Source: Escherichia coli
GTDB lineage: Bacteria; Pseudomonadota; Gammaproteobacteria; Enterobacterales; Enterobacteriaceae
Assembly: GCF_030013205.1 (NCBI RefSeq)
Contig: NZ_CP122648.1
Strand: one strand, 5' to 3'
DNA length: 64,000 bases
Position 1 is the first letter of the stretch. Every line of letters begins with the position of its first letter. The translations under genes were made by a program, and so were the position numbers. The notes beneath the pieces were generated by a model. It was not told the DNA's origin and made no database searches. It saw nothing but the letters and a program-made list of their open reading frames with translations. This document shows, piece by piece, positions 48,330 to 59,692 of this stretch.

Positions 48330-50243
48330 TCATGCTCCACTCGATTTCAGTAATCCGCGATAATCGAGGGCCGCGACACCTGCATCTATGCGCACTTTCC
48401 AGGCGACACCATCAACAGTAAAGCCCACCTGCTCCTCAAGATATGGCGTATCCATACCATCAAGATAAGCGACTTCTATTGTGTCCATCCCCTTAGCTGC
48501 GGCTACATACCATTCCTTGCTATTGGCCTTATCAAGACGTGGCTCAACAATTACTTCTGCCATATCTTTCACCACGTTAATGATGCCGGGGTTCTGATTG
48601 ATAGTGCTCTCATCACCAACCGGAAAGACTGATGACGATGACAGAATGGCGCGACGCGCGGCAGATTCCAGCGCGGCAGGGACCAGAACAAAAGCAGGGG
48701 TAATATTCAGTGAGTCGCCGTTAGCATCCTCCTGGAGGCGCATCAGCTTACGGGCTTCATCAAGCCCCACCATGTCCATATCCTTCGCAATAAGATTTTT
48801 ATGATCGGCATGGAATAACGCTTTACCATCCGTAAATTTGCCGTTGCTGGTTAACAGAAGATAAACCAGATTACCTACTGTTCTGGCGGCCGCACGCCCC
48901 ATCGCCATGGGGATTGTAGTTAACTGGGTCAGGTCATCGTTGATAATGGCCTGACGGGTAACAGAAAAAATATTACCGTATGTGGCCAGCGCAATAGGTA
49001 CACCTTTATCGCTGGTGGTGATGTATTTATATTCCGCACCTTCCGGTACTTTATCCAGCTTTGAAAAACCATTCAGACCAACGCGCTTTGCTTCATGAAA
49101 GTTTGAAAGCGATCCGGTACGCGTCCATTTCTGGAACGTTTCGCCGCTGTCCTGCCAGCCTTTCAGCACTGATTTTTCAGCACCACCAGCCAGAATATGA
49201 GAAAAATCGCTGCTGCTGTGTGTGAAAGCTGCATTAACGACCTGCGAGCGATTTAAAAAACTGCCAACACTGATACCACGATCAGTTAGTGATGCCTGGG
49301 CCATTTCAAAAAGGCTCATCATCGCGTAAGGATTTCCCCGCTCTGGGCGTTCATACCCAAGACGAGAATAAAGCCCCTGACGAATTGCATCGCCTGTTAT
49401 GTTCCCGTTACCGGCATAAATATGAGTCGGGATATTTTTATTGGATGGCGTGGACTCGCGCCCCAGCTCGTTCAACAACTTTTCACGGGCCATCTCCGGT
49501 GTACATGATGCATCCTCCAGGCACGCCATTTTGATCCCGTCGTAACGACTGCCGAACAGGCTAAACACTTCACTTATTCCGTTGATGCGCTTCTGTTCAT
49601 TACCAGCAATATTGGCTGCTCCCTGTGGCGGGGTAATCATTCCTTTAATGGTTTCAGGCATGTGTGAAAAATCTCCTGTGCGTTTCGATTCAATTCGCGC
49701 CATTGCTGTGACAGATGGCAACAATTCATCAGCAAAACCGTGCTTAAGGCATTCTTTCCCGTCCATCCAGGTTTCATCTTCCAGCATGGCGGTAATTTCC
49801 TGTGCTGATTTGCCCGTTTTTCTGGCATAAGCAGGGACTAACACGGTTTCCACCTTATCCAGCAAATCAGCATAATCACGCATATCACCAGCATTTCCGC
49901 CAGAGATACCCCACGGCTTATGTATCATCATCATGGCGTTTTCCGGCATCACAACACGATCGCCAGCCATTGCGACAACCGAAGCCATTGAAGCCGCAAC
50001 ACCATCGATATAAACCGTAATTTCTGCCGGATGATTCCGTAACAGGTTATAGATGGCGATGCCTTCAAACACGTCACCACCTGGCGAATGGATCCGCAGG
50101 TCGATATGTGAGACATCGCCCAGGGCTTTCAGGTCTTCCGCAAACTGCTTCGCGGTAATACCGAAGCCGCCAATTTCTTCATAGATGGATATTTCTGCCG
50201 CTCCGCGAACACCCAGCGCCTTAATGGTGTACCAGTGATTCAT
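48330..50243 (-). CDS. prohead protease (ClpP/S49-like) fused to HK97-fold major capsid protein
   Basis: Single 637-aa ORF; N-terminal serine-protease-like region (HSPGGDVFEGIAIYN...), C-terminal roughly 400 aa capsid-like. Confidence 0.8.
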   Translation of the reverse strand: MNHWYTIKALGVRGAAEISIYEEIGGFGITAKQFAEDLKALGDVSHIDLRIHSPGGDVFEGIAIYNLLRNHPAEITVYIDGVAASMASVVAMAGDRVVMPENAMMMIHKPWGISGGNAGDMRDYADLLDKVETVLVPAYARKTGKSAQEITAMLEDETWMDGKECLKHGFADELLPSVTAMARIESKRTGDFSHMPETIKGMITPPQGAANIAGNEQKRINGISEVFSLFGSRYDGIKMACLEDASCTPEMAREKLLNELGRESTPSNKNIPTHIYAGNGNITGDAIRQGLYSRLGYERPERGNPYAMMSLFEMAQASLTDRGISVGSFLNRSQVVNAAFTHSSSDFSHILAGGAEKSVLKGWQDSGETFQKWTRTGSLSNFHEAKRVGLNGFSKLDKVPEGAEYKYITTSDKGVPIALATYGNIFSVTRQAIINDDLTQLTTIPMAMGRAAARTVGNLVYLLLTSNGKFTDGKALFHADHKNLIAKDMDMVGLDEARKLMRLQEDANGDSLNITPAFVLVPAALESAARRAILSSSSVFPVGDESTINQNPGIINVVKDMAEVIVEPRLDKANSKEWYVAAAKGMDTIEVAYLDGMDTPYLEEQVGFTVDGVAWKVRIDAGVAALDYRGLLKSSGA

Positions 50244-50449
50244 TGCTCCCCCCCAGATGCAAAACCATTCTTATCAAGCCACGCGTTAACCGCGTGTCTG
50301 ACAATCTGCGCCGCACCTGGTAATGGTTGGTCAGGATGATGATTTATGTGGTCGATCCTGTACTGCTTAAGGCGCATAACGGTCTGCGCATCCAGATGAA
50401 CGGAACCACCTTTTACCTCGCCTGTGTTCAGGTCGTTAATACAATTCAC
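50240..50449 (-). CDS. hypothetical small protein (non-ATG start)
   Basis: 69-aa ORF with GTG start and AGAGGA RBS; stop overlaps the capsid start. Confidence 0.4.
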   Translation of the reverse strand: MNCINDLNTGEVKGGSVHLDAQTVMRLKQYRIDHINHHPDQPLPGAAQIVRHAVNAWLDKNGFASGGEQ

Positions 50450-50760
50450 AGTAACTTCCTCTTACTGACTAAACTGCGCGCATTATTGATCGATAAAAGT
50501 GGTAGATAAACATATTTCTATCATAAAAATAGATTAATCAGATTCAGACACAAAAAAGCCGGAGAGAATCCGGCATAAATATCCCGCCATCTGAACACGT
50601 TTTGCACAGGCAACTCCATCTGGCAGGTGAAAAACAAATTTATTTATATATTTCAATTAATTGCAAACTGGTCTAATGACAGGGAGAAAAAAATATTGTA
50701 CAGGTGAAAACAGAAATAACTTTTAATTATCAATAAATTACTACACATGCTGCCGCCGCC

Positions 50761-50858
50761 ATGAAAATGCAAAAACCAGCCTTTTTCCGCGACGCTCCCG
50801 CCCCGTGGCAGGTCACTACACCGGGAGGACCCATAAAAAAGCCGGATTGCTCCGGCTT
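50761..50858. repeat. conserved intergenic element B (copy of element A core, different terminal hairpin)
   Basis: atgaaaatgcaaaaaccagcctttttccgcg...ccgggaggaccc then gccggattgctccggc hairpin with T-run on the minus strand. Confidence 0.6.
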
Positions 50859-50872
50859 CTGTTACTCGTTGC

Positions 50873-51295
50873 TTAAAACGGTATGTTATCCCCGTACGGA
50901 TCATCATTTCCCGCCTGTTGTTTTGCTCTGCTCAGTGCATCAGTAGCCTGCCCCTGTTGGCCTTTTTTGCCGCCCGGTCGCGCCGTTCTCGCACTGATTA
51001 CGCTGTCTGCGATAACCTGCCAGCCCTGCCGCGTCTCCCCGTTCTGTCCGGTCCACTGGCTCACCTGCATGTTACCCGCCACGCTCAGGAGTTCACCCTT
51101 GCGGTGCTTTGCCAGTGCTTCGGCCTGTCTGCCAAACGCCAGGACGGATAACCACATCGTCGCCGTTCCGTCATCTGCCTGGCTGCACGGAAGTGGGACC
51201 GCCATACTCGCCATCGTCATTTGTGTACCCTTGCTGGTGGTCTTTAACTGCGGGTCAGCCACCAGCCGCCCGTAAGCCGCTATCTGTGCTGTCAT
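50873..51295 (-). CDS. single-stranded DNA-binding protein (SSB-like)
   Basis: 140 aa, OB-fold-like N-terminus and acidic C-terminal tail DDPYGDNIPF like the SSB DDDIPF tail. Confidence 0.65.
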   Translation of the reverse strand: MTAQIAAYGRLVADPQLKTTSKGTQMTMASMAVPLPCSQADDGTATMWLSVLAFGRQAEALAKHRKGELLSVAGNMQVSQWTGQNGETRQGWQVIADSVISARTARPGGKKGQQGQATDALSRAKQQAGNDDPYGDNIPF

Positions 51296-51537
51296 GCTGT
51301 CTGCTCTCCGGTTTTAACGTTGATGGTTGTCACCTGTTCCGCTTCGGCAATCTCCCGTTCTGTCAGCGTGGCAAAGTTTGCAGCTGCCGTTGTCATGAAT
51401 GAGCTAATCAGTTCGGGATGTGCTTTCGCATATCCTTCCCCGGCGTTGCGGTCGATGATTTTTATCGACACCCTTAACCAGTGTTCCGTCAAATCAAGGG
51501 CGTGCGATTGTGATTTTTTTGTGTGCTTCGCTGTCAT
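51292..51537 (-). CDS. hypothetical protein
   Basis: 81-aa ORF overlapping the SSB start. Confidence 0.45.
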   Translation of the reverse strand: MTAKHTKKSQSHALDLTEHWLRVSIKIIDRNAGEGYAKAHPELISSFMTTAAANFATLTEREIAEAEQVTTINVKTGEQTA

Positions 51538-51583
51538 AGGCTTTATCTCACAGCAGTAAATTAAAATTTTTGCGTTTTAACCC

Positions 51584-51812
51584 TTCACCTGTTCACCTTT
51601 TGATATTTTATCTTTTAATTCATAATGTTAAGGGGTGAACAGTTTCACAAAAACTATTCACCAACTGTTCACCACTGTTCACCCTTGAAGCTCAATAAAC
51701 AATCAAAAAGGTGAACAGTGAATAGTTTGGTGAACAGTTCATAAATAACTGTTCACCCTATAACATACTGATACAAAAGATATTTATGACAGGGTGAACA
51801 GTGGTGAACAGT
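51584..51812. repeat. iteron array: at least 9 copies of TGTTCACC/GGTGAACA in both orientations (P4 ori/crr-like)
   Basis: Octamers counted at 51590, 51634, 51666, 51676, 51710, 51729, 51750, 51793, 51803, with TATTCACC variants; immediately downstream of the alpha-like gene. Confidence 0.7.
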
Positions 51813-51824
51813 TATTCCATAAGT

Positions 51825-53642
51825 TTAATTTTTGCTATCGTCATTAGTGACCGATACACATGATGGCATCCAGTCTTCTGATTCCTCCGTCAGTGTCACG
51901 TTTGAACGCAAACCGTGCTTCGTTTTCCGTTTCATATACTCCCTGCCATATTCCGCCATTGCCCCCGGCATATCTTTACCGAAGCGCGTCAGTGTTACAG
52001 GTTTACCAAACCCATGTGCCCTCATATAAGCCAGATAGGCATGATAGAGATACCTGCGTGGGCTGAATGGCACAATTTCAGCATTACCCACTAACAGGCC
52101 ATCACACATTACCGACGCCATGAGATAGCCGCAGAAGTCCACCAGCGAATCCCCCTCTCGCTTTATCGCCAGTGCTTCTTCAGATTTCTGCTGCTCATAT
52201 AACAGGCGTCTGGCTTCGTCCTGGTCAGCAAACCGTGTAAGCAGATGGCGAATCACTACCGCCAGCTCACCTTCTATTTTTTCCGCCAGCATTGGATCGC
52301 GTTCGTTCTCCGGTACAACTTCCGAAAAATTGAATATCACCCGACGACGTGAGATCCCCCCGCTGCGGTCACTGAATGACATGGCGTTATTGTTAACCGC
52401 CAGCACTACTGCCGGAATACGCGTTGAGTAGGGGGCTTTGTGTTTCGGGTCAATTGCCACCTTGTCACCGCCTGTAATGGCCTTAATTCCTGCCCCATCA
52501 CCAGCGTAGCGGGTCATATCCGGCATGATAATCAGCGAAAAGCCAACCACTAACGCGCGTTCCCTTGCATCTTCCAGCGCCTTCATGCTTGCCGATACTG
52601 TGTTGGCCTTACCCGCCAGCATGGTGCAAATCTCCGCCATCACGCTTTTACCACTTCCCCCTGGACCTGTTACCTCAATGAATAACTGCCAGTCGTACCG
52701 GTTCGCCAGCACCATGAATAATGCAGCCAGTACGCGATCCGCCTTGCGGTCATTCTCAGCCACCGAACGGCGTAACCACTTCCAGAAATTCGGCGCATGT
52801 GTTGCCAGCGTTTCCCCCTCTGCTGGTGGGCTGAAAGGTAATTCACTGGCAATTAACAACCAGTCGTTTTTGTTATGCTCCCGAAAATTACCTGTTCTGG
52901 TATCAAATACCCCGTTACTGAATCCAATCAGGTTACGGGCTGTATTCCCCATAACAGGCAAACTTAACTTCATGGTATCGACCGCCGATTTAATGGCGTT
53001 CTGCGAATAGCTGATCTCCGCATCAATGAAAATCTGTGCCATAGCTCGCTGTAATTCTTTATCCTGTACTGGCTCCCATACAACGCCGTTGTAATGGTGA
53101 ACAGTGTCAGAGTCAGCATGAATCGCCAGTTCACCGCCATAATGTGCCAGGAGAACTTCGCCGCGTTGACTTGCTCCCATCTGGTTAAGCGCCAGTGATG
53201 AAGCGTTATCGTCTTTTACCCGCTCTTTTTTCTTTACAGGCAGTTCAACTACCTTTTTCTTTTCCGCCTGCTCTGCCCGTTCACGTTCCAGATATTCGCG
53301 CCAGTTCTCCCGTTTCTGGCTGTGCATTCCTTCAGGGTAATAATCAGCATCCCTGACACCTGCCGCTGCCAGTTTCTGCCCGATGGTATTAACAAGCCCC
53401 GGACGCAATAACCCCGCCTGGTAGAGACGCACGCGATAGCGTCCGTCCGGTACGATTTGCAGGTTGTCCAGTTCGGCAAGTTGTTGCTCTCCAAGCCAGA
53501 CAGGTGGCACGTTATCGCCAGCCAGTCGCCCGTCCTGTTCCTGCCACTGCTTCGCATGTGCCCACGCATCACTACCCGCAAAAATGATGACTTCCGTCAT
53601 TTTGTCACGCGGCTGGTGTTTTAAATTTGGCGCTTTTTTCAT
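51825..53642 (-). CDS. P4 alpha-like replication protein (D5_N / SF3 helicase, primase-helicase family)
   Basis: Walker A GPGGSGKS; ATG at 53642 with GGAGAG RBS; the track start at 53657 is GTG. Confidence 0.8.
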   Translation of the reverse strand: MKKAPNLKHQPRDKMTEVIIFAGSDAWAHAKQWQEQDGRLAGDNVPPVWLGEQQLAELDNLQIVPDGRYRVRLYQAGLLRPGLVNTIGQKLAAAGVRDADYYPEGMHSQKRENWREYLERERAEQAEKKKVVELPVKKKERVKDDNASSLALNQMGASQRGEVLLAHYGGELAIHADSDTVHHYNGVVWEPVQDKELQRAMAQIFIDAEISYSQNAIKSAVDTMKLSLPVMGNTARNLIGFSNGVFDTRTGNFREHNKNDWLLIASELPFSPPAEGETLATHAPNFWKWLRRSVAENDRKADRVLAALFMVLANRYDWQLFIEVTGPGGSGKSVMAEICTMLAGKANTVSASMKALEDARERALVVGFSLIIMPDMTRYAGDGAGIKAITGGDKVAIDPKHKAPYSTRIPAVVLAVNNNAMSFSDRSGGISRRRVIFNFSEVVPENERDPMLAEKIEGELAVVIRHLLTRFADQDEARRLLYEQQKSEEALAIKREGDSLVDFCGYLMASVMCDGLLVGNAEIVPFSPRRYLYHAYLAYMRAHGFGKPVTLTRFGKDMPGAMAEYGREYMKRKTKHGLRSNVTLTEESEDWMPSCVSVTNDDSKN

Positions 53643-53938
53643 TTCGGCTCTCTCCACGCGGCAATCATGTTTTTCAGTTCCTGCAGTTTTTTATCCACAT
53701 CCACACGTGACACATGGTTATTTCTGGAAGTCGGGATTTCCCGCCGGAATCTGCTAATAAAGATCTCCACGTTCAGCGAACTATGAAATGAATAGCCATC
53801 ACGAATAAAATACACACGGTCAAACATCAGTTCTTTTACCGTTACTCTGTTACCGTTCTTATCCAGATAAATAGCGCCGGGGATAATTTTGGGGTGTGCA
53901 TAACCGCTGGCAGTCAAGCCAGATAAATATGTTCTCAT
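53639..53938 (-). CDS. hypothetical protein
   Basis: 99-aa ORF, overlapping start/stop with the alpha-like gene. Confidence 0.45.
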   Translation of the reverse strand: MRTYLSGLTASGYAHPKIIPGAIYLDKNGNRVTVKELMFDRVYFIRDGYSFHSSLNVEIFISRFRREIPTSRNNHVSRVDVDKKLQELKNMIAAWREPK

Positions 53939-53944
53939 GATTAT

Positions 53945-54265
53945 TTATCCCCGATTTGAATCAGTATTCGCTTTCTTTATGGCATTTAATGCATCTGTGG
54001 CATTTTCAATGGTGCACCGTAACGAAATATCAAACTGCCCAAGCATTGCCAGTAACAAACCGATATTACCCATATCAATGCGCATGGCCTTTTCGTCATA
54101 GTCCTCATTTTCTGACGCATGCCACATCAGGCTACCAATTGACGCAACAGCCATTGATATATTGTCAGTAGCCCCATCAGCAGCGGAATAAACCTTTTTA
54201 GCAATATCATGCTCACAGTTAAAATGCGGATTAATCAGGTACTGGTAATTTGACATATCAGGCAT
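53945..54265 (-). CDS. hypothetical protein
   Basis: 106-aa ORF. Confidence 0.45.
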   Translation of the reverse strand: MPDMSNYQYLINPHFNCEHDIAKKVYSAADGATDNISMAVASIGSLMWHASENEDYDEKAMRIDMGNIGLLLAMLGQFDISLRCTIENATDALNAIKKANTDSNRG

Positions 54266-54461
54266 GGCACACCCCCTGACGAATACGGGCGGCGAATACC
54301 ATCACGTAGCCAGCCGGGGATTGCTGGCGTGCTTCCTGTTCACTGGTGGCCTCAATGGTAATCACGCGCGGTTGTGCCGTGCTCAGGGCGATAAAACGCC
54401 AGATGTATTTATTCAGGTTGTACGAGTCCCGCCCTTGCGGGTGTCTGGTATAATTTCTCAT
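54258..54461 (-). CDS. hypothetical small protein (real part of a spurious 302-aa track ORF)
   Basis: Internal ATG at 54461 with GAGG RBS (MRNYTRHPQGRDSYNLNKYIW...). Confidence 0.3.
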   Translation of the reverse strand: MRNYTRHPQGRDSYNLNKYIWRFIALSTAQPRVITIEATSEQEARQQSPAGYVMVFAARIRQGVCHA

Positions 54462-54540
54462 AGCTGCCTCGATACTGTTGCTATCGTTGGTGGTTAGACG
54501 CCCTGCATGTGTGCCACCACTGCGGGGCGTTGTTGCTTGG

Positions 54541-54630
54541 TGCATCGCACCATTCGTTTTTAACCTATCAGCAAGTGAATCGCACTTCAAGCCTTTCTCT
54601 GAAATTTTTTTTGTGTATACTGAATCGCAC
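54541..54630. promoter_or_regulatory. three direct repeats TG(C/A)ATCGCAC plus a TATACT -10-like box upstream of the RHH gene
   Basis: Copies at 54541, 54576 and 54621; TATACT at 54616..54621. Confidence 0.4.
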
Positions 54631-54651
54631 CAACTTAGAGAGGATTCAGTA

Positions 54652-54831
54652 ATGGCAACAGGTTCAACAAATAATAAGTCGCAACAGTTAAATGCCAGAT
54701 TCCCGCATGATGTTGTTGCAGACTTAGAAAAAAATTTAGATGAAGGTGAAAGCAAGGCGCAATTTATAGTTACTGCCGTTAAAGGCGAGATCAAACGCCG
54801 CCAGCGCCGCAAGGCCAAAGAGCAGGAGTAA
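54652..54831 (+). CDS. ribbon-helix-helix (Arc/CopG-like) DNA-binding protein
   Basis: 59 aa; N-terminal beta-strand-like LNARFPHDVVADL; GAGAGG RBS. Confidence 0.55.
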   Translation: MATGSTNNKSQQLNARFPHDVVADLEKNLDEGESKAQFIVTAVKGEIKRRQRRKAKEQE

Positions 54832-54873
54832 CCATCACCAGCGCCGTGGTGTGAGTAACTACGGCGCATTGCT

Positions 54874-55062
54874 ATGCAGGACAACACAATGACCGATAAA
54901 GAATTGACCAAAACATTATCACCGGCACGGAAAAGACGGCGCAGAAAGATAGAGCATGAATCAGAAAGATTCGCGCCATGTGCTTTTGCTCTTGAGAAAT
55001 TCCTTAAAGAGCACAGGAAAAAGCTCTCGTTGCAAACCTTGGAACGAACCAAATCTGACTGA
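54874..55062 (+). CDS. hypothetical small basic protein
   Basis: 62-aa ORF followed by hairpin ggcgaccgcccccggtcgcc with T-run. Confidence 0.3.
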   Translation: MQDNTMTDKELTKTLSPARKRRRRKIEHESERFAPCAFALEKFLKEHRKKLSLQTLERTKSD

Positions 55063-55176
55063 TCACATTGCCCACCAGCCGCAAATGTGGCATTGTTGGT
55101 GATGCGTTCAAGTTTAGTGTGTATCCATTGGCGACCGCCCCCGGTCGCCTTTGTTTTATATGTCATATGCTCCCCT

Positions 55177-55386
55177 TTACGCTGCCTTGCCTGAATTAAT
55201 GCGATCCCGGCTTTTAACCCATTCCATAACCTCGGACAGCAGCCAACCTACAGAACGACCGCCCAGATTACGGCGTGACGGGAAATTCCCTTTTTTCTCC
55301 AGTTCATAGCGTGTAGTGCGACACACTCCAGTTAACTTACGACATTCATCCTCACGGATTACGCGATCTTCATTTATTTCACGCAT
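55177..55386 (-). CDS. alpA: AlpA-family transcriptional regulator
   Basis: 69 aa, MREINEDRVIREDECRKLTGVCRTTRYELEKKGNFP... typical AlpA/Xis HTH. Confidence 0.8.
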   Translation of the reverse strand: MREINEDRVIREDECRKLTGVCRTTRYELEKKGNFPSRRNLGGRSVGWLLSEVMEWVKSRDRINSGKAA

Positions 55387-55805
55387 ACAAAAACCTACAT
55401 AAAAAATTACGTATATAAACTTTTCTCTTAGCTGTAGATATATGAGATCGGATATTACTTAGATTCTTTTTTCACCTCTTAAATTAAAAACACAACCTTG
55501 CTAAAGGCTTTGTTCGCTAAGGTTCGTAGAAGCTCGTTAGTGTTTAAAATCGTGTCACGAGTTTTTAAGCGATGCAACAAAAAATGTCGTTACTTGGCAT
55601 TACGCTTGAATTATCTCATTAAAAACAAATAGATAAACCATCAAGTGTTGGAACAATCAAGAAACAGAGAATAAAAGTTCAGAAGAAGACATTCCAATTT
55701 TTTGATGGTTGACATATATAAAGCGAAGATATTTGCAGATATTTTCCGATATTCTACGATTTATTCACGGCTGTAATCTCTTAAAGAAAAAACAGCCGTA
55801 ATTTG

Positions 55806-57053
55806 TCAAGAATTTTGGGGGTAAATTCGCGGGGTCATAACAACGATTTTTTCATCATTGTTCTGGAGAAGCTCGAGACGGTCTACCCATAGATTAAGAG
55901 CATCACGTTTTGCATCAAGATAACGGGAGTGGTTATAGACTCGTTGCATCCCCGGCATCTGGTGGGCGGTAAGCTGCTCGACAATATGCGGATCCACGCC
56001 TAAATCGTTCAGCATGGTTGTAAATGTGTGCCGGATGTCATGCAACGACCAGGGGGCTTGATTAATGCGTCTGTGTGCCGTTCTTCCGTACTCTGCTACG
56101 GATGATTGCCCTTTCAGTTCTCCAAGCAATAAGCCCGTGTGCCTGTTCTTCTCCACCAGCTTCATGACAAACGGCAAGATCGCTTCCGGTATTGGCCTGA
56201 ATATTGCTACCTTCGTTTTGCTGTGTTCTTTCGGCACAGTCCAGAGCATTTCTTTAAAATCCCATTCCTGAACCTCGGAGCGTCTTAGCTCAGTGGTACG
56301 GCATCCAAAGACAATCAGAAGGCGAATTAAGGCGCTGTAGTACGGCGGGAAAATTTTTTCATCCAGTGCGCGGAGTAGCTCGCCAAGCTCCTTGTTTGTT
56401 AGCACTCGCTCGCTTATTTCTGCTTTTTTTCCCACATCACCTACGACCATATCATCAAGAACGTTACTGACGGCGTAGCGACGTTTACGGCAGTACTTAA
56501 GCGCCTGCTTGCATACCTGCAACAAAAAGCCGGCTGATACCGGATTACGCTTAGCAAGCTGGTCAAAACAGGCCAGCCAGTGGCGTAACTCGCATTTATC
56601 CAGCGGCATAGCACCAATCTGGCTGATTATGTGCTTATTGATCCGGCTTTTCAGTGATTCGTGGTCAGTGCGCTTTTCCTTCGCGTATGACTCAAGCCAG
56701 TAAGTGATCGCGTCCTTAACCGTTACAGGTGCTAACGCTTCCTGCACTGTGTGATTAAGCTCATGGCGTGGATTTTTCCCCTCCGCCAGCCAGGCGCGAC
56801 ACTGTGCCGCTTTTTCTCTGGCTGCTTTCAGGCTCAGATCGGGATAGTTGCCCAGTCTCAGGCGTTCCGGTGATACCTGCCTGCCAGTTCCGGCCCTGTA
56901 AGTGAAATACCAGGTTAACAGGCCATTGGTTGAATGCCTTACGCTAAGGTTGCCACCATCATTAAAAAAGGTGTTTTTTGTGGTTGGTGATCCGCTTAAT
57001 TTTCGTAAAAGAGTGTCGCTAAGTCTATGAATTGCCCTGCTCATGTTTCGCAT
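55806..57053 (-). CDS. int: tyrosine integrase (P4-type)
   Basis: 415 aa with catalytic-region motifs (HDIRHTFTT, YNHSRY); at the island end next to cspD. Confidence 0.9.
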   Translation of the reverse strand: MRNMSRAIHRLSDTLLRKLSGSPTTKNTFFNDGGNLSVRHSTNGLLTWYFTYRAGTGRQVSPERLRLGNYPDLSLKAAREKAAQCRAWLAEGKNPRHELNHTVQEALAPVTVKDAITYWLESYAKEKRTDHESLKSRINKHIISQIGAMPLDKCELRHWLACFDQLAKRNPVSAGFLLQVCKQALKYCRKRRYAVSNVLDDMVVGDVGKKAEISERVLTNKELGELLRALDEKIFPPYYSALIRLLIVFGCRTTELRRSEVQEWDFKEMLWTVPKEHSKTKVAIFRPIPEAILPFVMKLVEKNRHTGLLLGELKGQSSVAEYGRTAHRRINQAPWSLHDIRHTFTTMLNDLGVDPHIVEQLTAHQMPGMQRVYNHSRYLDAKRDALNLWVDRLELLQNNDEKIVVMTPRIYPQNS

Positions 57054-57067
57054 TTCCGGTCATCAAA

Positions 57068-57092
57068 ATTAACTACACCATTGACTACACCG
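57068..57092. repeat. island-end repeat attaactacaccattgactacaccg
   Basis: 24 of 25 identical to 46691..46715; 15 bp beyond the integrase start. Confidence 0.6.
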
Positions 57093-57448
57093 TGCATCGT
57101 ACAAGGGCAAACAGCGACGAACAAGGGCGAACAAGAAAAACGAAATTTTCCTTTATAATCATAGCAATAAATGAGATAGATACACCACGACGAACACCCG
57201 CGAACACTAACTGATAAATAACTATCATCTATCGTTGGCATCAGCGACATCTGTCACATTCCTGTCAATAGCGTTAACTGCTTCAAATTTTTGATTCATA
57301 CCTGCCCCCTGGCCCCTGTCAAATGCTTGACGGCTCGCCCTAATTCTCTAAATTGTATTTCTAGAGTTGACGAGGTTTTGAACAGCCCCCTCTCTGACCC
57401 CGGTTTATTCCATCTTACTTGTATAAGATTTGCGAAGGATGTCGAAGC

Positions 57449-57673
57449 ATGGAAAAGGGTACTGTTAAGTGGTTCAACAATGCCAAAGGGTTTGGTTTCA
57501 TCTGCCCTGAAGGCGGCGGCGAAGATATTTTCGCTCATTATTCCACCATTCAGATGGATGGTTACAGAACGCTAAAAGCTGGACAATCCGTTCAGTTTGA
57601 TGTCCACCAGGGGCCAAAAGGCAATCACGCCAGTGTTATTGTGCCCGTCGAAGTAGAAGCGGCAGTCGCATAG
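57449..57673 (+). CDS. cspD: cold-shock-domain protein CspD
   Basis: ATG at 57449 (MEKGTVKWFNNAKGFGFI...), 74 aa; the track start at 57419 is TTG. Confidence 0.93.
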   Translation: MEKGTVKWFNNAKGFGFICPEGGGEDIFAHYSTIQMDGYRTLKAGQSVQFDVHQGPKGNHASVIVPVEVEAAVA

Positions 57674-57745
57674 CTCTTCTGTCTCATTGTGTACATCCTA
57701 AAGGCAAAATGCCAGCCCGATCGGCTGGCATTTTTATCTCAAAAA

Positions 57746-59692
57746 TTACTCTCGTGCCAGAGCATCTACTGGATCCAGTCGTGCCGCATTTCGTGCGGGT
57801 AACCAGCCAAATAAAATCCCGGTGACCGTCGAGCAGAGAAACGCCAGCAGCAGCGCCAACGGTGAAAAACCAATCTCCCAGCCGGGTAAGAAAAGCTGCA
57901 AGGTGAAAGCAATTAACAGTGACAGTGTTATTCCCAACGCGCCACCGACCAGGCAAACCAGTACGGCTTCGATCAGGAACTGTTGCAAAACATCGCTTGC
58001 TCGCGCACCTACAGCCATGCGAATGCCAATTTCCCGCGTCCGCTCGGTCACTGACACCAGCATAATGTTCATTACACCAATACCGCCCACCACCAGCGAA
58101 ATCACCGCCACCAGCGTCAGAAACAGTTGTAAAGTACGTGTGGTCTTTTCAACGGTTTTCAAGACGCCGTCCATGTTCCAGGTAAAGAAATCCTTCTTTC
58201 CGTGGCGCAGTGAAAGTAAACGCGTGAGTTGCTGTTCCGCCTCGGCGCTGTCAAAGCCTTCTTTCACCCTGACAGTAATGGAGTTAAGCCACGACTGGCC
58301 CATAACTCGCCCGGACATCGTGCTGTAAGGTAGCCAGACACGCAGCACTTTACTGCTACCAAACATCGACTGTTTTTCTTCCGCCACACCAATGACTCTG
58401 GCGGGCATATTGCCGACCAGAATCACCTCGCCAACCACATCTGCTTTATGGGGGAAAAGCTGGCGGCGAGTATTACTGTCGAGAACCACGACCTGCGCAC
58501 GACCGTTCAGCTGCTCCTGATTAAAGGTGTTCCCTTCACTGAAGGTCATGCCATAGACATTAAAATAATCGCCGCTCACGCCATTGGCACTGGCAGCCAC
58601 ATCAACATTGTTATAACGCAGGCGCAGGTTTTGCGAGACGGCAGGTGTGGCTGAGGCGACCCACGGTTGTTTTTGGATGGCGATTAAGTCGTCGTACTTC
58701 AGCGCCTGCTGATATTGCGGATCGTCATCGCCAAAATCTTTCCCGGGATAGACATCAATAGTATTCGTACCAATAGAACGAATATCCGCCAGCACCATTT
58801 GTTTGGCGGCGTCACCCACCACGACAATGGAAACCACCGACGCAATACCGATAATAATCCCCAGCATGGTCAGTAAAGTACGCATTTTATTCGCTGCCAG
58901 CGCCCGCCATGCCATCGTCAGCGCCTCGTTAAAACCACTGACAAACTGCCGCCAGCCAGACGCCGTGTTGACAGCAGGTTCCGTCCCGCCAGCAACATTC
59001 ACTTTTTCAATGGCGGGAGGATTGCGCACAATTTCGCCGTCGCGAATTTCGATCACCCGCTCGGCCTGAGCAGCGACCTGCGGATCGTGGGTAACGATAA
59101 TCACCGTATGCCCGCGATCGCGCAGCTGATGCAGGATCGCCATCACCTCTTCGCCAGAATGGCTGTCCAGTGCGCCGGTCGGTTCATCGGCAAGAATTAC
59201 CTGACCGCCGTTCATCAATGCCCGCGCGATGCTGACGCGCTGTTGCTGACCACCCGAAAGCTGTGCCGGATAATACTCTGTACGGTCTTCCAGCCCCAGT
59301 CGTTGCAGCAACTCCTGGGCGCGAAGCAGCCGCTGTTTCCGCTCAAGACCGGCATAGACGGCGGGTACTTCAACGTTCTGCTCGGCGGTTAAATGCGAAA
59401 GCAAATGGTAACGCTGGAAAATAAAGCCGAAATGCTCGCGGCGCAGTTGCGCCAGCGCATCGGCGTCCAGAGTGGCAACATCCTGACCGGCTACGCGATA
59501 GGTGCCGCTGGTGGCCTTATCCAGGCAGCCGAGAATATTCATCAGGGTCGATTTACCGGAACCCGAAGCGCCGACAATCGCCACCATCTCACCAGCATAA
59601 ATATCGAGGGTGATGCCCTTCAGCACCTCAACCTGCTCATCACCGGCAGGATAGCTGCGACGAATATCCTTTAATTCGAGCAAGGGCGTCAT
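57746..59692 (-). CDS. macB: macrolide export ABC transporter MacB
   Basis: 648-aa N-terminal NBD (GASGSGKST) fused to FtsX-like permease. Confidence 0.95.

Follow-up and report, generated by a model that had tools for sequence, protein, structure and literature searches.

A YlcI/YnfO-family ribbon-helix-helix protein as the probable class-specific repressor of the replication operon in an Escherichia coli chromosomal island

The DNA analysed here (the window) is a 64-kb stretch of E. coli chromosome which carries an island of about 10.5 kb between clpS and cspD. Within this island, a swappable cassette of about 290 bp, consisting of repeated sites, two predicted promoters and the first 45 codons of a gene for a 59-aa ribbon-helix-helix (RHH) protein, was found between near-identical flanks in the stretch that separates alpA from the replication genes. 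The protein belongs to the YlcI/YnfO family, and it is probably an Arc/Mnt-like repressor of class-specific recognition, acting on the replication operon as well as on its own gene, with induction by AlpA going around the block. Comparison of related loci strongly supports the three repeats upstream of the gene as putative operators of the protein, as their cores change together with its N-terminal strand. We infer the binding of the protein to DNA from this co-variation and from the position of the sites.

The island and the divergent RHH gene

The island carries a tyrosine integrase gene (int, 55806-57053, minus strand), alpA (55177-55386, minus strand; Pfam Phage_AlpA, E=2.9e-16), a P4-type primase gene (51825-53657, minus strand), and genes for an SSB and a ClpP-protease/capsid fusion protein. 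The succession of int, alpA, a replication module with a P4-type primase and late/capsid genes at a fixed chromosomal site is that of a Gram-negative phage-inducible chromosomal island (PICI) of the type of the archetypal EcCICFT073 (PMC6092414). The replication operon, which has the same direction as alpA, runs on the minus strand in the order Icd-like gene, 106-aa ORF, DUF4222 and primase. Its first gene, the presumed target of repression, encodes a 67-aa Icd-like protein (54258-54461, minus strand; NCBIfam NF033153, E=1.2e-19), and an Icd-like gene holds the same first place in most of the related loci. The 5′ leader of this operon contains a GC-rich hairpin (54500-54530, minus strand), the stem of which was recovered by RNAalifold with compensatory changes; at the pair 37-70, for instance, 7 sequences have CG, 7 have AU and 1 has GC. 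The gap occupied by the cassette has been termed a dynamic "Bro zone" in a 2023 survey, in which only Bro-domain proteins and C4-type RNAs were described there (PMC10111431).

The gene of the 59-aa protein (MATGSTNNKSQQLNARFPHDVVADLEKNLDEGESKAQFIVTAVKGEIKRRQRRKAKEQE) lies on the plus strand at 54652-54831 behind a GAGG Shine-Dalgarno sequence (54640-54643), and it is transcribed away from the minus-strand Icd-like/primase operon, as an earlier note on this DNA had stated. The protein scored 63.3 bits (E=1.5e-17) with the NCBIfam model NF041551 (YlcI/YnfO), for which the cutoff is 30, and the identical gene in RefSeq is likewise annotated as YlcI/YnfO. The same note had called it an RHH protein, and this was borne out by an N-terminal beta-strand followed by two helices, with the G-x-S/T/N turn ahead of helix 2 being present as G32-E33-S34, in which E33 does not vary and the conservation of G32 is 90% or more. 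The RHH fold is thus well supported, although the sequence families give no such support: Pfam yielded no match at E≤0.1, the Arc model and PF13132 (DUF3950) included, no helix-turn-helix family of Pfam or NCBIfam was matched, and the PHROGs family of the protein is one of unknown function. Nothing but noise came back when a profile was run against PDB sequences, and Foldseek was uninformative too. The C-terminus is a short basic tail of about 10 residues without a toxin-binding domain. In the full-text literature, no functional study was found on YlcI/YnfO, on RHH proteins in PICIs or on AlpA antitermination in satellites.

The strand of the protein, QQLNARFPHDV, resembles QFNLRWPREV of Arc, and pairwise BLASTP of the two proteins gave E=6e-4; homology to Arc at the sequence level appears marginal. 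In Arc, alternate strand residues contact bases, and by analogy positions 12, 14 and 16 would read DNA in the present protein. Across its relatives Arg16 is invariant, and the variable residues are 12, 13, 14 and 17.

Downstream of the RHH gene, and described as co-transcribed with it, is an ORF for a small basic protein (57 aa, pI 10.3; 54889-55062, plus strand) with AGGA 7 nt upstream. The start at 54889 is the same as the RefSeq call in an identical island, and an alternative start at 54874 has no Shine-Dalgarno sequence. With a dN/dS of 0.12-0.5 this ORF is a real gene; its core (ERFAPCAFALEKFLKEY) is conserved and the basic tract is present. It belongs to PHROG 21027, of unknown function, and has no Pfam match. 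The stem-loop in front of it (54841-54867, plus strand) is identical in the E. coli relatives, and the folded stretch 54832-54891, including a small second hairpin, reaches about -20 kcal/mol overall. The unit ends in an intrinsic terminator (GGCGACCGCCCCCGGTCGCC followed by a T-run; 55130-55159, plus strand), 18 nt from the alpA stop codon and convergent with alpA, so that the small basic ORF and the terminator facing alpA are both where the earlier note had seen them. The U-tract of this terminator exists on the plus strand only, and a scan of the minus strand from alpA to the Icd-like gene found no terminator-like site; transcripts of alpA could thus continue into the replication operon.

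Candidate operators and their change across specificity classes

The repeat TG(C/A)ATCGCAC occurs upstream of the RHH gene at 54541-54550, 54576-54585 and 54621-54630. The whole window holds 4 copies against 0.49 expected, a number that none of 100 shuffles reached, and three of the four are within 90 bp. Lengthened by one base, the three sites become 11-mers of the form GTG-N5-CAC (GTGCATCGCAC, GTGAATCGCAC and CTGAATCGCAC), for which no further match with one mismatch or less was found elsewhere in the window. The three copies were rightly noticed in the earlier note, but they are better described as 11-bp pseudo-palindromes than as the direct repeats it spoke of, as their orientation flips in some classes.

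Candidate operator site 1 (54540-54550) is part of the palindrome TGGTGC-ATC-GCACCA and lies at about +5 to +15 of a predicted leftward promoter; its position is conserved and its core is class-specific. Site 2 (54575-54585) abuts the -35 element of this promoter, starting at its last base, and fills the spacer. The predicted -35 element, TTGAAG (54590 to 54585, minus strand), belongs to a CTTGAAG that is nearly invariant across classes, and the predicted -10 element, TAGGTT (54567 to 54562, minus strand), has the form TAnnnT, which every class keeps at 17-18 nt downstream of the -35. The leftward promoter of the window matches the consensus at 7 of 12 positions and was not called by the promoter scan. 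Its equivalents in EcCICFT073 (TTGACG-18-TATAGT, 10/12) and in one further locus (L080; TTGAAG-18-TATACT, 9/12) were called, each as the sole promoter match of its region. In class B, that of EcCICFT073, site 1 overlaps the leftward -10, and it is at about +5 to +15 in most classes.

Site 3 (54620-54630) overlaps the -10 element and the predicted start point of the RHH promoter. The TATACT box (54616-54621, plus strand), the overlap of which with the last repeat was already remarked upon in the earlier note, is preserved as a (G)TATACTG found 31-36 nt before the ATG in most loci. This promoter has a good -10, no convincing -35 and a T-tract upstream. The last bases of the TATACT box and the point at which the RHH transcript is expected to begin fall within site 3, by which negative autoregulation is implied, and sites 1 and 2 would occupy classic repressor positions on the predicted promoter of the Icd-like/primase operon. 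With repeats on two divergent promoters, the protein could plausibly repress its own gene as well as the replication operon. Two other candidates in this region were discarded. The only promoter-like match that the scan gave in the window, on the minus strand at 54698 to 54671 inside the RHH ORF, was attributed to chance, as it needs AATAATAAG codons which are missing in other classes. A plus-strand terminator made of the site-1 hairpin and a T-run was dropped as well, because several classes lack the T-run and the AT-rich -10/start region of the leftward promoter accounts for it.

The comparison set consisted of 80 loci encoding relatives at 61-100% identity. Their intergenic order is kept as GC hairpin, site 1, a spacer of about 22 nt, site 2, TTCAAG, T-tract, (G)TATACTG, site 3, and Shine-Dalgarno sequence with ATG, and the distances of the sites from the ATG (-112, -77 and -32) are kept across the 80 loci too. 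Within this constant frame the outer GTG/CAC bases of the sites are invariant, and the 11-bp core varies in step with residues 12-14 and 17 of the strand, by which six classes were distinguished. The strand QQLNARF goes with the core GTGAATCGCAC, QALKARV with GTGTGGCCCAC, QQKTARI with GTGCAAGTCAC or GTGACTTGCAC, QMTTVRI with GTGTATTTCAC or GTGAAATACAC, and QKLQARA with GTGGAATCCAC or CTGGATTCCAG; the sixth core, GTGAATACCA, is that of 100-aa protein variants. Such joint change is indirect evidence that the paired strands of an RHH dimer may read the major groove of the DNA at these residues.

A test of repeated 9-mers against dinucleotide shuffles at each locus gave 2 of 300 for the window and 164 of 300 for class B, and was significant in some classes only; it was underpowered, as T-rich spacers inflate the null, and was replaced by a cross-class matrix. 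In this matrix each of the six site-2 motifs had its best match in the site-1 region belonging to the same class (9-11 of 11 bases, as against 5-9 for other classes), and the own site-3 region was clearly best in four of the six. The agreement of site 3 with the class motif is good in classes A, D and E, moderate in B and weak in C and F. The backgrounds of class A range from E. coli-type to Klebsiella/Enterobacter-type, and across them the spacers diverge whereas the three sites do not vary. Two classes have a site 1 which is the reverse complement of site 2, and a flip of orientation between classes fits a two-fold symmetric RHH assembly and not RNA pairing. As gene and operators are adjacent, part of the association between them is co-inheritance; the weight of the argument lies in separate sites having changed in concert, class by class. 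Taken in this way, the co-variation of core and beta-strand in six classes strongly supports the proposal of the earlier note that the repeats are operators of the RHH protein, as far as sequence comparison can do so.

Cassette mosaicism and the alternative readings

Alignment of the window with EcCICFT073 gave 90-100% identity over 54288-54497 (the Icd-like gene) and again over 54789-55028 (RHH codon 46 onwards and the greater part of the small ORF), and only 33-70% over 54498-54788. The divergent stretch comprises the leader hairpin, the operators, both promoters and the predicted DNA-reading part of the protein. Mosaicism of this kind is the hallmark of immunity regions in phages. The gene order in EcCICFT073 is alpA, a 57-aa ORF, a YlcI/YnfO gene, the Icd-like gene and the primase, with a cassette of another class; both small genes bear late-added locus tags there, which suggests later re-annotation.

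Of 5,426 complete E. coli genomes, 698 contained cassette-like DNA, 164 of them with an identity of at least 90%, and a single genome carried it at up to 5 places. Relatives of the protein were found throughout Enterobacterales, in Klebsiella, Salmonella, Enterobacter, Proteus, Morganella, Hafnia, Yersinia, Pectobacterium, Xenorhabdus and Cronobacter. A tblastn search of 50,697 deposited phage genomes gave no match to the subfamily of the window, so that among the collections searched this subfamily is found only in chromosomal islands and island-like contigs.

A different account of the two plus-strand genes would be a toxin-antitoxin-like pair, in which the RHH protein is an autoregulating antitoxin, the small basic protein is the toxin, and the repeats merely autoregulate the two-gene unit. 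We consider this very unlikely. Among the 81 loci in which the RHH gene and its sites are retained, a strict motif, which misses a variant small ORF in two loci (L013 and L077), picked up the small ORF in only 34, a lower bound, and not in the other 47, and this ORF is limited to Escherichia/Shigella. Where it occurs, its variants assort independently of the RHH class, and it lies a constant 57 nt downstream of the RHH gene with the stem-loop in between instead of overlapping it. An obligatorily linked toxin and a toxin-binding antitoxin tail, by which type II pairs are known, are thus both missing, the RHH protein ending in its short basic tail and the small ORF matching no toxin family in Pfam, NCBIfam or PHROGs; besides, two of the three sites are on the divergent promoter. 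The repeats might otherwise work in the transcript, as leader hairpins or as pairing targets for an immunity RNA in the manner of P4 seqA/seqC and the P1 a/b boxes. Site 1 does form a hairpin with co-varying flanks (AAGGTG/CACCTT, TAGGTG/CACCTA, TTGGTG/CACCAA) in a predicted leader adjoining the conserved structured hairpin, and the leader of sibling islands (locus L010, for example) does contain a true immunity module of the C4/isrK RNA type. We nevertheless hold the RNA-level account to be highly improbable. The scan of 50000-58000 with Rfam gave no C4, isrK or c4-a1b1 match at E≤1 and no CI, and the P4-like pairing boxes were dropped as a candidate for the window. Only site 1 is in the leftward transcript, since site 2 is in the promoter spacer and site 3 is upstream of the leftward -35, and the rightward transcript holds only part of site 3. 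The direct-repeat classes have no complementary partner, the flip of site orientation would be tolerated by a symmetric protein and not by RNA pairing, and the cores track the beta-strand of the protein. From the hairpin-keeping flanks, site 1 may have an additional role at the RNA level.

Short spaced repeats adjoining a replication module also resemble iterons, and some RHH proteins (TraM, omega/ParG) are architectural factors; the repeats could accordingly be imagined as an origin or packaging site read by the primase/Rep, or as the target of the RHH protein in an architectural capacity. Site class is, however, uncoupled from the primase allele, which counts against primase iterons: class A sites occur with primases whose identity ranges from 100% to 48%, or where no primase was detected, and the primase allele of the window (99% identity) is also found with the long-variant class. 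In every class the sites match promoter elements to the base, and the replication genes of Gram-negative PICIs are reported to colocalise with mapped origins downstream of the cassette region (PMC10111431). An iteron or accessory-factor site is in our view extremely unlikely.

Proposed mechanism and related systems

As a repressor, the RHH protein would bind the three 11-bp pseudo-palindromes (GTG-N5-CAC) in the 190-bp region between the back-to-back promoters. Occupancy of sites 1 and 2 would keep the Icd-like/primase operon silent in the quiescent island, and occupancy of site 3, over the -10 and the start point, would let the protein limit its own synthesis. The cassette would have diversified into at least six specificity classes and would recombine among near-identical islands, like phage immunity regions. 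Induction would probably go around the block, with helper-activated transcription of alpA running antisense through the cassette into the replication operon; this read-through step is purely an inference.

Helper phages switch on alpA, and AlpA, which is needed for induction, is sufficient when overexpressed, as its overexpression alone triggers excision and replication of EcCICFT073 (PMC6092414). No repressor of Gram-negative PICIs is known (PMC6092414), and the 59-aa protein is the strongest candidate to date for the "missing" one. As EcCICFT073 carries the same cassette and yet is induced in this way, AlpA must bypass or override the RHH protein, which is then not the sole gatekeeper. The two layers of induction control suggested in the earlier note are upheld to this extent: a regulator alongside AlpA is reasonable, given the sites on two divergent promoters, but AlpA overexpression alone induces EcCICFT073 (PMC6092414). 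The AlpA of P. aeruginosa is reported to be an antiterminator (PMC7969949), and such an activity would fit a bypass by read-through from alpA. It is tempting to go further and regard YlcI/YnfO RHH proteins as the unrecognised immunity repressors of Gram-negative PICIs, EcCICFT073 included, with at least six non-cross-reacting immunity types set by the swappable cassette of about 290 bp, and with AlpA transcribing or antiterminating through the cassette from behind, which would both silence the repressor gene by convergent transcription and bypass the repressed promoter. This extended version we rate as doubtful.

An RHH repressor with its operators would be a device of a known kind; what would be new is its setting, which is without a recognised repressor, the uncharacterised protein family and the set of specificity classes. 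If the protein is a repressor, it would offer a direct handle on how Gram-negative PICIs stay silent, would explain how several islands could coexist as different immunity classes, and would link AlpA induction to replication. It would also give the YlcI/YnfO family its first function, and the six natural protein/operator pairs would make a compact orthogonal repressor set.

Functionally, the closest known system would be the immI region of P22, in which the RHH repressors Mnt and Arc control the divergent promoters Pmnt and Pant (PMC11016777). By promoter prediction, the candidate operators of the window are likewise inside divergent core promoters. P22 is, however, a phage with two repressors, whereas the window holds a satellite with one; the operon of P22 encodes the antirepressor ant, whereas that of the window has no ant and consists of the Icd-like, 106-aa, DUF4222 and primase genes; and the Pfam Arc model is not matched by the protein of the window.

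With P4 and with P1 immI (c4 RNA, icd, ant) the island shares a proposed immunity-controlled promoter before a cell-division-inhibitor-like gene and replication genes, and an upstream alpA-type gene co-oriented with the replication genes (PMC10111431; PMC8546580 and its references). In P4 the early promoter PLE is controlled by the CI RNA and the late promoter PLL reads through the alpA homologue. The immunity factor of those systems is an RNA acting on the transcript, whereas a protein acting on DNA is proposed here. Sibling islands have a real isrK/C4 module just downstream of the leftward promoter, and the window has neither C4 nor isrK.

Stl and Str of the SaPIs are helix-turn-helix proteins. 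The earlier note had likened the present module to the Stl/Str master-repressor switch, which is borne out in part only: the likeness stands for position and proposed role, as Stl and the Rpr of Gram-positive PICIs are also small divergent regulators between the integrase side and the replication operon, with a part in quiescence (PMC6092414). It does not extend to the protein itself, which has the RHH fold, matches no helix-turn-helix family and is no Stl homologue. SaPIs, moreover, have no AlpA activator, whereas Gram-negative PICIs need AlpA (PMC6092414).

The K-12 proteins YlcI (of DLP12) and YnfO (of Qin) have the NCBIfam model NF041551 in common with the protein of the window. YlcI is similar in size (about 64 aa) and has an N-terminal strand with RFP, but its identity to the protein of the window is 23% over 31 residues, and it matches Pfam DUF3950 (PF13132) with 72.8 bits, which the protein of the window does not. 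The neighbourhoods differ as well: ylcI sits in a lambdoid prophage beside cos and the small terminase gene, whereas the gene of the window adjoins a replication operon.

RNA-based immunity modules and a second RHH type in the cassette slot

In the sibling island L010, which has the same RHH cassette, an RNA module of the P1 immI type (L010:2514-2715) splits the Icd-like ORF after codon 18. Rfam matches of this module were to isrK (75 bits), c4-a1b1 and C4 (82 bits), and islands of this type carry a second, intact Icd-like gene 3′ of it. The same combination of RHH cassette, split Icd-like ORF and RNA module was also observed at the loci L043, L051, L065, L076 and L079. Because L010-type islands possess the RHH cassette together with the isrK/C4 module, protein-based and RNA-based immunity can stand in series behind one promoter in these siblings. 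No such module was found at 50000-58000 of the window with the Rfam families C4, isrK and c4-a1b1 (E<=1).

In the EcCIEDL933-like island of E. coli O157:H7 FRIK944, the cassette slot (L082:3760-4224) was occupied by a different RHH-like ORF. This unannotated ORF of 57 aa (L082:3820-3993) begins MSTPLEKRSPPYQMRLPEDF and matched Pfam Arc with E=0.038; GGTAATTACCATGT occurs twice upstream of it, and the same small basic ORF as in the window lies downstream. RefSeq annotates an Icd-like pseudogene on the opposite strand of this slot, which was judged implausible. Both RHH types were found in tandem at locus L077.

Hairpins flanking the RHH gene

The Icd-like operon has in its predicted 5′ leader a GC-rich hairpin (54500-54530), followed by the conserved UCUAACCA motif; the hairpin is kept across classes, with compensatory base changes. 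On the other side, a stable stem-loop (54841-54867) was found between the stop codon of the RHH gene and the small ORF, and the folded stretch (54832-54891, about -20 kcal/mol) also holds a small second hairpin beside it. Those E. coli relatives that have the small ORF share an identical stem-loop, as read directly in EcCICFT073 and the O157:H7 island, and the gap between their two genes is always 57 nt. The stem-loop may act as a signal for processing or attenuation.

Further candidate regulators and the wider setting

A Bro-N/antirepressor-like ORF, co-oriented with alpA, lies between alpA and the RHH cassette in many relatives (EcCICFT073, L084:7773-8160; L014, L017 and L069-L075); it is conceivable that this putative island-encoded anti-repressor acts on the RHH protein. 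The window has no such ORF in this position.

At its start, the protease-capsid fusion gene overlaps with a 69-aa ORF (50240-50449, minus strand). This ORF showed no Pfam match and has a pattern of RHH-like appearance, VHLDAQTVMRLKQY...AAQIVRHAVNAWL; its product may be another small regulator, acting on the late genes.

In the DLP12 prophage of E. coli K-12 (L085:6252-6840), the family namesake ylcI is divergent from the small terminase gene nohD, from which a lambda-like cos region separates it, a setting quite unlike that of the satellite cassette. Next to the island's attachment side, the 5′ region of cspD matches the cspA thermoregulator of Rfam below threshold (57337-57737; 41.7 bits, gathering score 78).
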